In this document: positions 7,914 to 47,579 of the stretch, piece by piece
Layout: the number at the start of each line of letters is the position of its first letter
Numbering within the stretch: position 1 is the first letter of the stretch
Source: Patescibacteria group bacterium
GTDB taxonomy: Bacteria > Patescibacteriota > Minisyncoccia > Phycocordibacterales > Phycocordibacteraceae
DNA length: 47,579 nucleotides
Direction of reading: 5' to 3'
Assembly: GCA_018969385.1 (NCBI GenBank)
Contig: JAGWYL010000004.1
Location: forward strand, 1 to 47,579
Position numbers and translations under genes: made by a program
Notes under the pieces: model-generated
Databases searched by the model: none
What the model was told of the DNA's origin: nothing
What the model saw: the letters and a program-made list of their open reading frames with translations, nothing else

Positions 7914-8789
7914 ATGATTGTCGGCATTATCGGCCAAGGAGCGTTCGGCAAGGCCATCCGCGCCGAACTTTCGCGCGGCGGCGTCGAACCGGTCTGCGTG
8001 GACGCGGGCGAGACGCTCGCCGGCAAGGGGCCGTTCGACGTCGTCTTCCTCGCGGTGCCCGCCGCCGCGCTCCCGGAAGCCCTCGCGGATAATCAAAGCG
8101 CGTTTAGGGATGCGCTCGTCGTGAACACCGCGAAAGGCATGGACGAGCGCGGGCGCATGCCGCAGGCCGTCGTCATGGAGGCGCTTTCCGGAATCACCTT
8201 CCGGTATGCCGCCGTGTTCGGGCCGTCTCTTGCGGATGACCTTCTTGCCGGGAGACCCGTGGGCCTCACCATCGCCGCGAAGGACGCTGGAGACCGCGCG
8301 CTCCTTTCGACGCTCCTCGCGAAGGGCAACCTGCTCCTCGACGCGACGGACGACGTGCGCGGCGTCGAGCTTGCGGGCGTCATGAAGAACGTCTACGCGC
8401 TCCTCTTCGGCTACGCGGACGCCATCGAGCTCGGTCGCTCCGCGCGCGCGGCGCTCTTTTCCGCCGCCGTGCGCGAGTTCGAATCGTTCGCGAAGGCCGA
8501 GGGCGCCTCGCCGGACATCGTAAGCTTCGGCGCGCTCGGCGACTTCGCCCTCTCCGCGCTCTCGAACGCGAGCCGGAACCACGCCTTCGGCATGGAGCTT
8601 GCCGCGCTCGCTCCCGCGGACATCGAAAAGCGCGCGGCCGCGAAGACCGTGGAAGGCTACCGCACCGTGCGCATCCTCGCGGACCAGGGCCTCATCACTG
8701 ATGCGTTTCCGCTCCTCTCCGCCGCGCACGCTATCGCCGCCCGCGGCGCGGACGCCCAGCCCCTCGTACGCGGACTCTTCGCGTCGTAG
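7914..8789 (+). CDS. gpsA: NAD(P)H-dependent glycerol-3-phosphate dehydrogenase-like protein
   Basis: GQGAFG Rossmann motif, NTAKG, GPS, ELAGVMKNVYA, GD, SRN, VEG. Confidence 0.82.
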   Translation: MIVGIIGQGAFGKAIRAELSRGGVEPVCVDAGETLAGKGPFDVVFLAVPAAALPEALADNQSAFRDALVVNTAKGMDERGRMPQAVVMEALSGITFRYAAVFGPSLADDLLAGRPVGLTIAAKDAGDRALLSTLLAKGNLLLDATDDVRGVELAGVMKNVYALLFGYADAIELGRSARAALFSAAVREFESFAKAEGASPDIVSFGALGDFALSALSNASRNHAFGMELAALAPADIEKRAAAKTVEGYRTVRILADQGLITDAFPLLSAAHAIAARGADAQPLVRGLFAS

Positions 8790-8875
8790 CCGGCGAAGGC
8801 ATATTCACAAATCGGGCGCGGGCGTGCATAGTGCGGACGAACCCTTGAACCTTAACCCAACCGATGGAGGCCACG

Positions 8876-9250
8876 ATGGCTGCTGATGCCTTGCGGCAAT
8901 TCCTGCTTATCCTGAACGACACATACAAGGTCCGGCTTCTCACCTTGCCGCGGGACGGCGGGGACGAAGCGGCTCTCCTTATCCGCGAACGCCTGGACAC
9001 GATTCACGAGCTCTTGTCGACGCTCGAGAGGGACGGCGTCGGACCCGCGCGGACATTCCTCATCGAGCGCAAGCAGGAATGGCTGCGCGCCATCGAATCC
9101 TGGAACCGCGCTCGGGCGCATCCGGAACGCGGGGAGTTCGCCGATGGCGAGATAGCGTTCTACCGGCGGCTCGTCGAGCTTGCGGACGATGCGATTGCGA
9201 GTCTTCGTCCAGGCAAGATTCCGGGAGGCGGAAATGGATACGATGCGTGA
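8876..9250 (+). CDS. Hypothetical helical protein
   Basis: GGAGG 5 nt before ATG; upstream TTCACA-N17-CATAGT; coding-like codon usage. Confidence 0.65.
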   Translation: MAADALRQFLLILNDTYKVRLLTLPRDGGDEAALLIRERLDTIHELLSTLERDGVGPARTFLIERKQEWLRAIESWNRARAHPERGEFADGEIAFYRRLVELADDAIASLRPGKIPGGGNGYDA

Positions 9251-9581
9251 CCGCCTTCGCCAGCTGCTTGAGGGCGACCTCTACGTCGCCGCGGAGATCT
9301 GGCGCGTCGCGCGCGCCGAGTATGGGCCGAAGCACATCACCGCGGAGGCGTCCGTGCGCGCATACGGACGCGCCGAAGCCGCGCTCCGCGCGTTCCATGC
9401 GGGCGACGGCATCGCCGTACTCGCGTACTTCCGCGAGGAATACCGGACCGCGCTCCGGAACATCGCGTTCTGGGAGTCGAAGCCGCTTCACACAGACGGT
9501 CGCGCCATGCTCATCGCCGTCTCGCGGACGCGCAAAGCGCAGCTCGAGCTGTTCCTGCCGGGCGCGGAGCATGTCTCATGA
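9234..9581 (+). CDS. Hypothetical helical protein
   Basis: GGGAGG before ATG; 17-nt overlap with the upstream ORF; resembles 9698 ORF. Confidence 0.6.
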   Translation: MDTMRDRLRQLLEGDLYVAAEIWRVARAEYGPKHITAEASVRAYGRAEAALRAFHAGDGIAVLAYFREEYRTALRNIAFWESKPLHTDGRAMLIAVSRTRKAQLELFLPGAEHVS

Positions 9582-9697
9582 CGCTATTCGCCCGGACACG
9601 TCCCGTCTTCGCTTTGCCGAAGACGGGACGTTCGCTTTCACAAAATAGATTTTTGTCGTATAATCAGCGCAGAGACCGCAAACCGCGAGGAAGCGAC

Positions 9698-10129
9698 ATG
9701 ACCCACGAGAATCCGAACGCGGTCGAGCTCCTGCTCGCCACGCTCATGGAACGCGATTGGAGGGCGTTCAAGGTTGCATACTCGTTCGAGCATAGGACGA
9801 GCATCCCGTACGCGATCGCGAGAGCGAAAGTGGAGCGGCGGCAGAAGGCCATCGAGGCATACCATAGCGGAGACCTCGCGCGCGTCGTCCGCGAACTCGC
9901 GCTCACGAGGCGCGAGCTTTCGGAACCGGCGCGCATCGCCGACGAGACGCTCAAGCTCTTCTACGGAGAGAACCTCGAACGGCTCGACGAGCTCGCCGGA
10001 ACCGAAAGCGGCGAACTTCTCAAGCGACAGCTCGCGGACATGGAGGCCGAGTGCGTCTCGCTCCATACCATCCTTGCGCGCATCGCGGACATCCTTCCGG
10101 ACCTTGAGACCCGCTCGAAGACCGCATAA
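9698..10129 (+). CDS. Hypothetical helical protein
   Basis: TTCACA-N16-TATAAT (9637-9664), GAGG before ATG, terminator follows. Confidence 0.7.
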   Translation: MTHENPNAVELLLATLMERDWRAFKVAYSFEHRTSIPYAIARAKVERRQKAIEAYHSGDLARVVRELALTRRELSEPARIADETLKLFYGENLERLDELAGTESGELLKRQLADMEAECVSLHTILARIADILPDLETRSKTA

Positions 10130-10134
10130 GCACG

Positions 10135-10170
10135 TGCCCGCTGACATCCGTCGGCGGGCACCATTTTTTA
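10135..10170 (+). terminator. Rho-independent terminator
   Basis: GTGCCCGCTGAC-ATCC-GTCGGCGGGCAC then TTTTTT. Confidence 0.75.
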
Positions 10171-10232
10171 TCCGATCAGCCGAATCTCCCCGCTGAAACG
10201 AACCGCACCCGGACCTCCCCTCTCCGTCCGAC

Positions 10233-10268
10233 ATTCTTATCTTTGGACGGTCGGCGATGGATAAGAAT
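10233..10268. repeat. 36-bp dyad site, copy 1
   Basis: ATTCTTATC-TTTGGACGGTCGGCGATG-GATAAGAAT, 6 nt beyond the stop codon. Confidence 0.9.
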
Positions 10269-10274
10269 AGCTCG

Positions 10275-10856
10275 CTATCCTTTCGGCAGCATGAAATGGG
10301 CACGGAGCGGCGCATCGCCTTCAAGGCTGTCCACGATGGCGTAGAGCACGCTTCGCCCTATCTTGAGATCGGCCTTAAGCATCGCGACGAAGTCTTCGCA
10401 GTCGTAGGGATACACCCATACGCTGTCCTGAAGACGGAGGAATCCGATATCCGCCATGACGCTGCGCAACTGTGCGCGCACCCTTCGCTGGCGTTCAGGC
10501 ACGTCAAATGCCACCATGCGCCAGCGTCCGTCCCACTTGCGCGGCCGTATGCTTAGCGCAGCCTTCGCTTTTTCAAGCGCGAACGCTCTCTCGCCAGTAG
10601 CGGTGAGCCGCAGGAACTTCATTCCGTTACTCTTCACCCATTTCGCATACCCTTTCGTTACGAGTCGGCCGGCTGCCGTGCGTGCCCGGTACCCGAGCAA
10701 GGCGTCCTGTCCGGGAACGTATTTGAGCAGCTGTAACGTCTTGGGCGCGATTGCCGCCCAGGCAAGCAGTCCTGCGCCCGCAGTCGCCATGAGCACCGCC
10801 GTCTGTATGTTCTGCTTGCGCCGTCGCTTCCGTGCGCCTTCTTCCATCTTTCCCAT
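10275..10856 (-). CDS. PaaX-like winged-HTH plus Cas2-like domain protein (orphan)
   Basis: wHTH wing FLRLTATG; KWDGRWRMVAFDVPE...LR...GFLRLQDSVW of the PaaX central/Cas2-like domain; ATG 6 nt after TATGCT (GTG at 10862 is an alternative). Confidence 0.85.
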   Translation of the reverse strand: MGKMEEGARKRRRKQNIQTAVLMATAGAGLLAWAAIAPKTLQLLKYVPGQDALLGYRARTAAGRLVTKGYAKWVKSNGMKFLRLTATGERAFALEKAKAALSIRPRKWDGRWRMVAFDVPERQRRVRAQLRSVMADIGFLRLQDSVWVYPYDCEDFVAMLKADLKIGRSVLYAIVDSLEGDAPLRAHFMLPKG

Positions 10857-10874
10857 TCTCACAGCATACGCCGT

Positions 10875-10910
10875 ATTCTTATCTTTGGCCGACCGGCTGT
10901 TGATAAGAAT
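10875..10910. repeat. 36-bp dyad site, copy 2
   Basis: ATTCTTATC-TTTGGCCGACCGGCTGTT-GATAAGAAT; 30/36 identical to copy 1; covers the predicted -35 region. Confidence 0.9.
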
Positions 10911-10944
10911 ATGAGGACGCCGACGAACGCTTGTTTATCCGTGT

Positions 10945-11250
10945 TTATCCGAGCGTATAGATATCTATGACCGGCTCTTCGTACGGATGCGCGTCACGGA
11001 TGGCGCGGACGACCTCGCTGACTCGGTCGTCCGCGACCGCCACCTCTATGCGTTCTTCCTCCACTTCTTCCATCTTCCCCACTTCTCCGATTGCCGGGTG
11101 CGCGCCTTCTTCCGGCTTGAAGCGCCCCACGCCGCGCATGCTGAAACTCGCGAACGAGTAGTTCCCGATGCGCCCGCCGCCCGCATCCCCTATTGCCTCG
11201 CGAACTTTCTCCGCATCCGCGACCGGCGTAGTCGTGACAATCTTTTTCAT
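10945..11250 (-). CDS. YqfO/NIF3-type stand-alone PII-like domain protein
   Basis: AGGGRIGNYS, G.GRFKP.EGAHPAIGEVG, HPYEEPVIDIY. Confidence 0.85.
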   Translation of the reverse strand: MKKIVTTTPVADAEKVREAIGDAGGGRIGNYSFASFSMRGVGRFKPEEGAHPAIGEVGKMEEVEEERIEVAVADDRVSEVVRAIRDAHPYEEPVIDIYTLG

Positions 11251-11256
11251 AGTTGG

Positions 11257-11673
11257 CTATGCGGGGCGTATAAAGAACTTTTGACGATGCTTCTCGAATC
11301 TCACTTCGAATAAATCGAAAAAGCGCCGTTGGCCTAAGAGGCAAGCATAAGGCAAGGAAGGCACGAACGTCGCGTCAGTCATGAACGGCGTAAAGCCATC
11401 CACGGTCACGGAAACATCGTGCGTGAACGCATCCCGTCTTTCTCCTGTGACCCCTCCGACGGAAACTGAATTTGAAAACTGTTTGATACTTAGAGCTTCC
11501 GCTAGACTGGCCTCAAGCATCGTACAGTCACAACCTGAGTCAATAAGTGCGTTCACCCGTATCGAACCGCTGTCGCTGCGGAGCTCAACGGGAATTATCG
11601 GACGATAGCCGACCGTCGTGCCTTGAGCGTCCCACTGATATGAAAAGTCAAATTCTTTCCAACGTGCAGCCAT
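11257..11673 (-). CDS. Retropepsin-like aspartic protease
   Basis: RPIIPV, ALIDSG catalytic motif, LLGQ..FF. Confidence 0.8.
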   Translation of the reverse strand: MAARWKEFDFSYQWDAQGTTVGYRPIIPVELRSDSGSIRVNALIDSGCDCTMLEASLAEALSIKQFSNSVSVGGVTGERRDAFTHDVSVTVDGFTPFMTDATFVPSLPYACLLGQRRFFDLFEVRFEKHRQKFFIRPA

Positions 11674-11682
11674 TGCAGCGAA

Positions 11683-11877
11683 CTAAAACGCGAACGTGAC
11701 GTCGGTAGGCAGAACTTTCATGTAAGTGGCTTCATCGCGGCGGTCGCCAAGCCGGCTGCGCAGTACCGCAAGATCCTCCGCATAGTCAATCACTCGCGTC
11801 TGCTCCGGATTCAATGCAACCCACTTGCGTTCGTGCTCCTTTTTCAGAATTTTTCTGAAATCCACGTTCTGTCCCAT
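11683..11877 (-). CDS. Small DUF5678-like protein
   Basis: KWVAL..RVI pattern; 9 nt upstream of the protease; TATACT upstream; alternative ATG at 11883. Confidence 0.65.
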   Translation of the reverse strand: MGQNVDFRKILKKEHERKWVALNPEQTRVIDYAEDLAVLRSRLGDRRDEATYMKVLPTDVTFAF

Positions 11878-11932
11878 ACTCATATAGTATACCTCCTGAA
11901 ACGCCAGCTGCGCGTAAGCGGGTGCGCAGGCA

Positions 11933-14410
<2,478 letters not shown>

Positions 14411-47541: not shown

Positions 47542-47579
47542 CCGAAGAAACATACCGATATATCGGTATGTTTCTTCGG
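47542..47579. repeat. Perfect 38-bp palindrome at window end
   Basis: CCGAAGAAACATACCGATA|TATCGGTATGTTTCTTCGG; may extend beyond the window. Confidence 0.85.

Follow-up and report, generated by a model that had tools for sequence, protein, structure and literature searches.

Organization of the locus

The stretch of DNA considered here (the window) is a contig of 47,579 bp (JAGWYL010000004.1, or C28) from the genome of a Patescibacteria group bacterium (GCA_018969385.1, or G000), which comprises 757 kb in 32 contigs with 62% GC and is 92.6% complete. In this window, a small gene is closely bracketed by two copies of a 36-bp dyad. The gene lies at positions 10275–10856 of the minus strand, codes for 193 amino acids followed by a stop codon, as delimited by its open reading frame (ORF) and by homolog alignment, and is the sole minus-strand ORF between the two sites. 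Its product is termed mini-PaaX after its domains, which are described below. The copy that follows the stop codon is the downstream site (candidate operator 2; 10233–10268), and the one that precedes the start codon is the upstream site (candidate operator 1; 10875–10910). Both have the form ATTCTTATC-N18-GATAAGAAT with the same arms, and the core reads CGGTCG on the plus strand in the downstream copy and CGACCG in the upstream copy.

The ORF listing places the start of the gene at a GTG at 10862. Since all 30 aligned homologs begin with MGK or MG, the start is taken to be the ATG at 10856–10854. Read in the sense of the gene, the order is thus the upstream site, ACGGCG, the −10-like hexamer TATGCT (10863–10868, minus strand), GTGAGA, the frame from ATG to TAG, 6 nt and the downstream site. 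With respect to the ATG, the upstream site extends over about −19 to −54; the hexamer stands 6 nt before the ATG and 6 nt from this site, and the stop codon (10277–10275) stands 6 nt from the end of the downstream site at 10268. From site to site, the unit spans 10233–10910, or 678 bp. When the window was searched for the site pattern with up to three mismatches, exactly these two matches were obtained. The arms of both have no mismatch, the chance expectation is 0.01, and none of 100 shuffled sequences gave two or more matches. The two 36-mers are identical at 30 of 36 positions and differ at 6; a repeat comparison gave 84% over 37 nt with a start-to-start distance of 642 bp. The initial annotation of this DNA, made from the letters alone, had described the two sites with this identity, the spacings of 6 nt on either side and a 678-bp unit containing only a promoter and the gene, and all of this is borne out by the sequence and the pattern search.

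The same annotation had likened the sites to loxP and FRT. Each can be parsed as 14-8-14, and the 8-bp cores look opposite to each other, being literally reverse complements (ACGGTCGG and CCGACCGG); the cassette would then be invertible or excisable, with the core as an asymmetric crossover region. The complementarity is real, but it does not make one site an inverted copy of the other. Only the central dinucleotide differs (GT and AC), and the spacers keep one orientation in orthologs, as is seen when the downstream site of the window, CATCG-CCGACCGT-CCAAA, is set against its orthologous counterpart at locus L031, AGTCG-ACGGTCGT-CCAAA. Among 91 unique loci, moreover, the core is CGGTCG, CGACCG, CGGCCG, CGATCG, CTATAG or CCATGG, often differing within one locus. 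Such mixed centres, together with a fixed spacer orientation, imply that a near-palindromic centre is read symmetrically and is not a directional crossover. Pfam and NCBIfam scans detected no recombinase domain in the protein. Furthermore, no inversion, no circle and no excision or other joint at the sites was present in Logan contigs of four public runs, which is a weak test as contigs hide rare variants. One of these contigs, in run X3, spans 9530–11273 with no differences, and in run X4 the contigs break near both sites at low depth. The ortholog spacers, the mixed cores and the missing recombinase domain contradict the analogy, and a site-specific recombination cassette of this kind is extremely improbable.

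Domain architecture of mini-PaaX

The best-defined part of the protein is its second half. Residues 108–182 match the Pfam family PF20803 (PaaX_M) with an E-value of 4.8e-21 and 75.1 bits against a cut-off of 24, and the score of the Pfam Cas2 model stays under its cut-off. In the same Pfam scan of the 193-residue protein, PF07848 gave no match at E ≤ 1, and no PaaX_C effector domain was matched; the protein ends at residue 193, shortly past the Cas2-like domain. Among the NCBIfam models, TIGR02277 (PaaX) aligns with residues 57–162 at 36.7 bits, far from its cut-off of 264.55, and TIGR01573 (cas2) reaches 26.1 bits against a cut-off of 24.5 over 38 residues only. As this last score just exceeds the cut-off, annotation pipelines tend to name the protein Cas2.

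A model by AlphaFold2 (AF2) from 30 homologs has a mean predicted local distance difference test score (pLDDT) of 74, falling to 44–52 over the first 50 residues. It consists of helices at 40–46 and 51–67, wing strands at 71–84, a linker helix and a ferredoxin-like domain. The N-terminus is a basic and hydrophobic helix, the recognition helix covers about residues 51–67 with the wing at 71–84, and the Cas2-like ferredoxin fold at 108–182 carries an invariant FD(V/I)PE motif. A reading of the hydrophobic N-terminal helix as a transmembrane segment was set aside, since it seems to correspond to the helices with which the winged helix of PaaX begins; this segment is the one with pLDDT 44–52 and without a PF07848 match. 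A Foldseek search with the model placed E. coli PaaX (8a39) at the top, with an E-value of 1.5e-4 over 133 columns, followed by Rv0674 (3kfw) and then by Cas2 and VapD proteins, with E-values of 0.04–0.3 and probabilities of 0.9–0.99 for most Cas2 chains and 0.57–0.90 for VapD. Mini-PaaX is thus taken to be a PaaX-type winged helix joined to a Cas2-like PaaX_M domain, without the effector-binding C-terminal domain. The Pfam match, the AF2 model and the Foldseek search all back the two-domain assignment made initially. Homodimer predictions scored 0.23 and 0.19 against a mark of 0.42 and were used neither for nor against any reading.

The two parts of the protein are conserved to different degrees. 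In the alignment of 30, which is otherwise 68% identical, the Cas2-like two-thirds is highly conserved and the winged-helix part is the most variable. D118 of the FDVPE motif is present in 30 of 30 sequences, and E121, Q143, S145, D152, E154 and K161 are likewise invariant. The genome was also inspected for partners of a true Cas2. Cas1 (PF01867) had no match in G000, and no CRISPR array was detected in the window by the tandem-repeat finder TRF, which an array of unrelated spacers could escape and which was applied to the window, the rest of the genome lying outside the scan. The earlier statement that neither cas1 nor an array is present agrees with these results. Similarly, none of the eight flanking ORFs that were scanned, to which the search for paa genes was confined, is such a gene.

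Paired sites across the family and their covariation with the protein

The pairing of sites is not confined to the window. For a large-scale comparison, each locus was scored for an ungapped segment shared between the region −80 to +6 of the ATG and the region −15 to +80 of the stop, with a score of at least 12. Such a segment is present in 28 of the 30 best loci of the same genus; at the remaining two, L025 and L034, a dyad is still seen at each end, but its arms have diverged. In species-representative genomes, it was found in 65 of 78 loci, against 2 of 152 displaced-window controls (2 of 80 loci were left out, the contig end being too near), and in metagenome contigs in 60 of 73, against 2 of 119 controls (7 of 80 loci dropped). 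When unique loci were pooled, 123 of 149 had a cognate palindrome both before the ATG and after the stop. This is an undercount, because the downstream copy of L112, for instance, is about 95 nt out and falls outside the region that was scored. By eye, the pair is also present in all of ten additional paralog loci with 37–50% identity (one each in genomes G016, G070, G078 and G023, and six in G065).

In the 30 best same-genus loci, a dyad of 34–44 bp lies just 5′ of the ATG and a matching one 0–40 nt past the stop. The sequence of the site varies among paralogs, while the two copies at one gene agree with each other. Examples of such paralog sites are TCTCCCTATC, TCTCACTATC, ATTGTTATC and those with CCACTAA arms, and at L043 and L049 the sites are perfect palindromes of 34–42 bp. 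The family itself is large: species-representative genomes have at least 588 confirmed loci, and metagenome contigs at least 559. By record titles, its hosts include Candidatus Kaiserbacteria, Nomurabacteria, Adlerbacteria, Zambryskiibacteria and other Paceibacteria/Parcubacteria. Within the genus its distribution is patchy: a homolog at E ≤ 1e-10 was detected in 36 of 121 genomes, with 1–8 matches each, and in the other 85 there was none. The site pattern of the window was matched in 10 of 41 related genomes, with the CG-RY-CG centre only in G000, G008, G022, G006 and G012. The matches in G016, G019, G031, G036 and G038 lack this centre and look like chance.

The differences between sites follow those between the proteins. 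Among 56 unique proteins of the main group, all 12 with the recognition helix YRMKSV have ATCTC[ACT]CTATC arms, all three in which Gln replaces R57 have TTGTTATC arms, and those with YRA[KR] are paired with TTCTTATC or TCCTTATC arms. The arm changes are tracked by the upstream and downstream copies alike. Such a change of both copies in step with the recognition helix is expected if the encoded protein reads both sites. Thus, the paired dyads that the initial annotation proposed to look for among relatives are found there, and they change together with the recognition helix; on the strength of the pairing and the covariation, mini-PaaX very probably binds both of its flanking sites. If this recognition is as supposed, the substitution R57Q would move the preference from TTCTTATC to TTGTTATC, and A58M/A61V would move it toward CTCNCTATC.

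A link between the protein and the centre of the site is less distinct. When 57 cases with a CG-RY-CG centre were compared with 28 having C[TC]AT[AG]G, the top mutual information with a protein position was 0.46 of 0.91 bits, and no column was decisive. Positions 124, 128 and 132 are among the top ten, and all three point to the same side of the first helix of the Cas2-like domain, which is rich in arginine. Their association with the centre is a lead only, being confounded by phylogeny.

The upstream site and the promoter

Of 152 unique family loci, 137 have a TAnnnT hexamer that ends 4–9 nt (mostly 6–7 nt) before the ATG; when a control window placed 60 nt more upstream was inspected, the hexamer was present in 18 of 152. 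A strict two-hexamer scan for sigma-70 promoters found none at the window gene, and the promoter is therefore deduced from the conservation of the −10 hexamer. The position of this hexamer points to leaderless transcripts. In the group to which the window belongs, the upstream site covers the −35 zone and ends 6 nt before the hexamer, and its position relative to the ATG is kept in orthologs, with a gap of 16–27 nt. The sites of distant paralogs, in contrast, lie over the −10 box and even the ATG. In either placement, a bound protein would hinder RNA polymerase, and it is likely that mini-PaaX represses its own gene in this way.

The downstream site

A site placed after the stop codon calls for a separate explanation. 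Read as RNA in the sense of the mRNA, the downstream site of the window folds with −7.7 kcal/mol (z −0.97), and 32 of 200 shuffled sequences fold equally well. No T-run was found after it. The downstream site is thus not an intrinsic (RNA hairpin) terminator. Terminator-like hairpins in the direction of the gene are also rare in the family, being seen in 5 of 123 loci with a downstream site and in 3 of 26 without one. The genes beyond it differ among species: a convergent gene of 183 amino acids in the window, a methyltransferase gene in G008 and a gene for a Cys-rich protein in G022. It follows that the downstream site belongs with the mini-PaaX gene and not with a downstream promoter. The spacing of the two copies ranges from 613 to 695 bp with a median of 647 (n = 105) and has no obvious helical phasing. 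This distribution neither favours nor excludes a DNA loop of about 640 bp.

It may be asked whether the palindromes act as duplex binding sites at all, or rather as hairpins in RNA or single-stranded DNA, in the manner of a terminator, a stabiliser or a repetitive extragenic palindrome (REP). Perfect palindromes of 34–44 bp at L043, L049, L099 and L103 would suit such a role, as would an AT-rich palindrome family of G000 (P2, described below), whose copies keep perfect symmetry while their inner arms vary. However, the 5-nt spacers are non-complementary in the window and in its orthologs, the transcribed copy folds no better than shuffled sequence, and the upstream copy precedes the start of transcription. 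In addition, the only REP-associated tyrosine transposase (RAYT) of the genome has a different REP of its own. Hairpins are, therefore, a very unlikely basis for the function of these sites.

Another proposal is that mini-PaaX is a boundary or roadblock factor, which sits past the ends of genes, its own included, and stops read-through; the pair around its gene would then be a by-product of autoregulation combined with self-termination. Every copy of the site examined does lie about 0–40 nt from the stop codon or terminator of some gene, an intrinsic terminator follows the mini-PaaX gene in only 8 of 149 loci, and the protein has no ligand domain. Against this, three to six sites per genome are too few for a general role in termination, and GC-rich hairpin terminators are plentiful in G000. 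Any intergenic site in such compact genomes is near a stop codon, and 85 of the 121 same-genus genomes gave no homolog at E ≤ 1e-10. It is doubtful that a boundary function is what explains the pair.

Solo copies and other palindromes in the genome

The site is also found away from the gene. In G000, six copies were counted, namely the two flanking ones and four solo copies at C2:16202, C6:26374, C18:21430 and C18:40465 (one arm mismatch), and the pattern read backwards, as a control, gave no match. All six have the centre CCG-AC/GT-CGG. Three of the solo copies share the spacer and flank bases ACTAA...ATCGGA, which are not required for the dyad. With the neighbouring genes named from their translations, the copy on C2 is bordered by a DinB-like gene and, convergent to it, a PurF-like gene; C18:21430 is likewise placed between convergent genes, the stop of a deformylase-like gene being 36 nt away; and the copy on C6 lies 45 nt upstream of a DHFR-like gene. 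Every genome checked has solo copies: four in G000, two in G008, two in G016, one in G070 and three in G078. Their intergenic positions are non-orthologous: some copies follow stops or terminators, some precede the next promoter, and others separate divergent genes or, in several cases, convergent ones. Thus, the pair described at the outset is real, but the site is not private to the gene, as the four solo copies had been missed.

These copies bear on a further possibility, namely that the cassette is a selfish or recombinogenic module. The sites would be the ends of an element resembling an insertion sequence (IS) or a REPtron, bound by the winged helix and nicked or cut by the Cas2-like domain, and the solo copies would be its footprints or dispersed copies. 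The placement of one end on the promoter and of the other shortly after the stop codon is indeed the geometry of an IS, and many insertion sequences are known to autorepress through their upstream end. The patchy, multi-copy distribution, the intergenic and often convergent positions of the solo copies and the bases shared by three of them fit this idea. Similarly, a solo site of G008 lies between rplT and a convergent MBL-fold gene, a spot at which five other genomes carry a whole paralog cassette. In one of these, at L042 (G114:C1), the cassette stands between the two copies of a 58-bp direct repeat (57/59 identical; 1361–1419 and 2170–2227), which derives from the 3′ end of the MBL-fold (RNase J-like) gene. 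Decayed copies of this repeat follow the cassette at L041 and L047. The acidic residues D118, E121, D152 and E154, invariant in the Cas2-like domain, likewise count in favour of such a module.

On the other hand, the copies within a genome are never nearly identical. The two mini-PaaX proteins of G000 are 49% identical, and paralogs reach at most 52% to the query and look old. No target-site duplication is visible by eye at the window cassette, the contigs of the four runs mentioned above hold no joint, circle or inversion, subject to the same blindness to rare variants, and the protein has no known transposase or recombinase fold, PaaX itself being a plain repressor. The flanks of the cassette, considered in the next section, furnish arguments of both kinds. 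Taken as a whole, a selfish module is unlikely.

G000 is rich in other palindromes. Near-palindromes of 38 bp number 89, against 2–4 in shuffled sequence, and many of them are GC-rich terminators. Three AT-rich families were distinguished: P1 with 17 copies, P2 with 12 copies and the centre GTCCTATAGGAC, and P3 with 5 copies. The P1 palindromes, of 38–54 bp, have the centre TATATATGCATATATA inside GTTAC...GTAAC arms. Two copies of P1 flank a gene for a TrpR/YerC-like protein of 136 amino acids (C15:11145–11555, minus strand; span C15:11049–11601), and two more flank a Maf-like gene on C29. This may be another case of a regulator bracketed by its own sites, with an unrelated fold, or it may be due to chance, given the many copies. 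A P3 palindrome of the ATACCGATATATCGGTAT type forms the end of the window (47550–47571).

The second mini-PaaX of G000, L006 (C5:~10016–10685), has two flanking sites of the P2 type. They share only the inner part TTTGTCCTATAGGATA, with TCTCACT and AAATTGTAAAT as their respective outer arms, and the upstream one overlaps the ATG. Of the 12 P2 copies, nine fall exactly at contig ends, which suggests that perfect palindromes probably break the assembly and that cassettes of about 650 bp between them are probably lost from the genome bin. Contigs C2, C4, C5, C6, C7, C9, C11, C18, C19, C20, C22 and C26 begin or end on a perfect P1 or P2 palindrome. The sole RAYT of G000 (PF01797; L052, C29:6246–6461, region C29:5600–7100) has a hairpin of its own, TTGCCGACACTAAGTGTCGGCAA, three copies of which flank it in the form of a classical REPtron. 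Since this RAYT carries a different REP, the mini-PaaX sites are not its substrate. A likeness to ParB/parS was also considered and set aside: a normal ParB gene sits elsewhere, on C18, and the GC skew of the window is uninformative on the origin.

Neighbouring genes and the fluidity of the flanks

The eight flanking ORFs scanned comprise a P-II/CutA-like gene of 101 codons, an aspartyl protease-like gene, a GpsA-like gene, a methyltransferase gene and four without a family, and gyrA, identified from its translation, is nearby. The 101-codon gene (10945–11250, minus strand) owes its name to weak P-II/CutA-like matches under the Pfam cut-offs. Between it and gyrA lies an ORF for 138 amino acids (11257–11673, minus strand) with a retropepsin-like aspartyl protease domain (PF13650, E 7.9e-8), and an ORF for 90 amino acids at 11683–11955 has no known family. 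On the other side, the plus-strand candidate ORFs at 8864–9250 (128 amino acids) and 9180–9581 (133 amino acids, overlapping the former) and the ORF at 9578–10129 (183 amino acids) have no Pfam family. Together with the GpsA-like gene (7914–8789), these three separate the cassette from the methyltransferase gene in G000, which is not the case in G008. A clear terminator at 10134–10161 ends the 183-codon ORF.

The main ortholog stays beside gyrA in G000, G008 and G022, and thus in three species or more. This speaks against frequent movement and, with it, against a selfish module. As regards fixed synteny, raised initially as a check on mobility, the locus keeps its place next to gyrA in these species, but its flanks change near the edges of the sites. 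The continuous alignment of related cassettes mostly stops about 58 nt ahead of the ATG on one side and about 46 nt past the stop on the other. L024 and L142 share 96.6% identity, but their similarity is lost within some 6 nt of the upstream site. The cassette is upstream of the 101-codon gene in L056 and downstream of it in G000 and G008. In several relatives, this gene is cut to 5′ fragments of 10–24 codons, about 5–35 nt from the upstream site (L023, L026, L032, L035 and L063, and, by eye, L024/L057 and L172).

All of these features, the switch of sides and the truncated fragments included, could be the work of an element with active ends. Nevertheless, the stop in homology is partly trivial, since the intergenic DNA beyond is not conserved, and collinear matches often resume. 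Similarly, deletions in the neighbour must end at the site because its stop is only 6–34 nt away in these compact genomes. No comparable empty site was found at the syntenic locus; two of five gene-less genomes had the 101-codon neighbour, in other surroundings. In metagenome contigs, the search for close strains gave a best match of 65% identity.

A probable two-operator autorepressor

Of the two alternatives offered by the initial annotation, a mobile or invertible cassette and a two-operator autorepressor, the latter is the better fit to the pairing, the promoter overlap, the covariation and the PaaX fold. We consider it reasonably probable that mini-PaaX is a dimeric autorepressor with two operators, the downstream one acting by looping, as a roadblock or in both ways. 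A dimer joined through the Cas2-like domains would sit on each 36-bp dyad, where its two recognition helices would read the arms of 9–13 bp, the distance between the arm centres being about 27 bp. Between them, the CG-RY-CG centre would probably be faced by the basic first helix of the Cas2-like domain. Binding at the upstream site, in the −35 position of a putatively leaderless promoter, would shut off the synthesis of the protein itself. The downstream site would most likely reinforce this autorepression by pairing with the upstream site in a loop of about 640 bp. It may also block RNA polymerase leaving or entering the gene, and the gene would then regulate itself whatever its neighbours are. 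The solo copies would be additional binding places of the same protein.

Several points weigh against this two-operator scheme. Simple autorepression requires the upstream site alone, and both the loop and the tetramerising surface that it would need are proposals. The protein lacks both a ligand domain and a conserved regulon; its solo sites are few and non-orthologous, and several of them are off promoters. A repressor with hardly any target besides itself is odd. The solo copies have about 26 specified bases each, which cannot arise repeatedly by point mutation or chance, and they thus imply some copying process. The downstream site of a gene was the single best partner of its upstream site in only 16 of 30 loci; this test is weak because orthologs share a nearly identical site, and displaced-window controls were used in its place. 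Each covariation class may be one clade, which would leave few independent events. Finally, the Cas2-like domain is conserved far beyond the needs of a dimerisation module, which hints at a further activity.

It has been considered that the cassette is a minimal selfish element of a new kind, in which a Cas2-like domain with nuclease activity is directed by the sequence-specific winged helix to both ends of the gene that encodes it, but this is improbable. If true, the resulting breaks or stalled forks would drive copying, excision down to solo sites and the rearrangements at the edges of the sites. The element would be an analogue of insertion sequences and REPtrons built on the Cas2 fold, and it would bear on the recruitment of Cas2 into CRISPR adaptation.

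Relation to known systems

The closest known relative is PaaX, the phenylacetyl-CoA-responsive repressor of the paa genes, composed of PF07848, PF20803 and PF08223 (TIGR02277), with the structure 8a39 from E. coli W. It has a winged helix followed by a Cas2-like middle domain, as is modelled for mini-PaaX, and is the top structural match. E. coli PaaX binds TGATTC-N27-GAATCA and represses its own Px promoter by hindering RNA polymerase (PMC9493321). The two systems share a long operator with widely spaced inverted half-sites (TGATTC-N27-GAATCA there, 9-N18-9 here) and, if the autorepressor reading is right, the repression of the own promoter (PMC9493321). Mini-PaaX differs in being much shorter (about 193 residues against about 305), without the C-terminal effector domain, and in having no paa genes nearby, a conserved centre in its site, a second cognate site past the stop and many paralogs, each with a site of its own.

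Repressors that form DNA loops are well known, among them lambda CI, which acts at OL and OR around cI-rex, and Lac, Gal and DeoR. They too have two or more operators per protein, hundreds of base pairs apart, and those of lambda flank the repressor gene. However, both lambda operators control outward promoters, whereas the downstream site of mini-PaaX has no conserved promoter and the loop would hold the gene alone.

Among mobile elements, a REPtron is a single-copy gene for an HUH tyrosine transposase that lies between palindromic REPs of its own, further REPs being scattered over the genome. The likeness lies in the cognate palindromes that bracket the gene, in the extra intergenic copies placed 3′ of genes and in the joint variation of protein and palindrome. 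In contrast, mini-PaaX is not a Y1 transposase, its solo copies number 1–4, far below typical REPs, and the site in the group of the window is not a full hairpin. Similarly, in IS1, IS10, IS911 and IS30, the transposase binds terminal inverted repeats and the promoter is in the left end. One end over the promoter, the other right past the stop and autorepression by the product that binds the ends are features in common; a transposase fold, target duplication and identical copies are absent from mini-PaaX, and each of its "ends" is itself a palindrome. With Cas2 and VapD, the protein shares the ferredoxin-like fold with an Asp in the first β-strand (FDVPE). It differs from Cas2 in that the TIGR01573 match is restricted to 38 residues, the domain is fused to a winged helix, and neither a Cas1 in G000 nor an array in the window accompanies it.

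The initial annotation had remarked that no description of such an arrangement was known. In the literature searched, which was covered largely at the level of titles and abstracts, no published account of the own-site layout of mini-PaaX was found, in keeping with that remark. No work joining PaaX and Patescibacteria was found in it either, and the "PaaX-like" literature concerns other organisms, going by titles and the first lines of abstracts.

Significance

Mini-PaaX forms a large family that is headed for misannotation as Cas2. The cassettes are probably under-counted in genome bins, as perfect palindromes break short-read assemblies. As each paralog comes with two copies of its own 34–44-bp site, the family offers hundreds of natural protein–operator pairs. 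These could reveal the recognition code of the PaaX-type winged helix and, perhaps, the way in which a Cas2 fold contacts DNA. Textbooks offer no explanation for a regulator that is without a sensor and has no conserved targets other than those on either side of its own gene. It would be either an unusually insulated autoregulatory module, in genomes that have very few regulators, or a selfish element of a new type.

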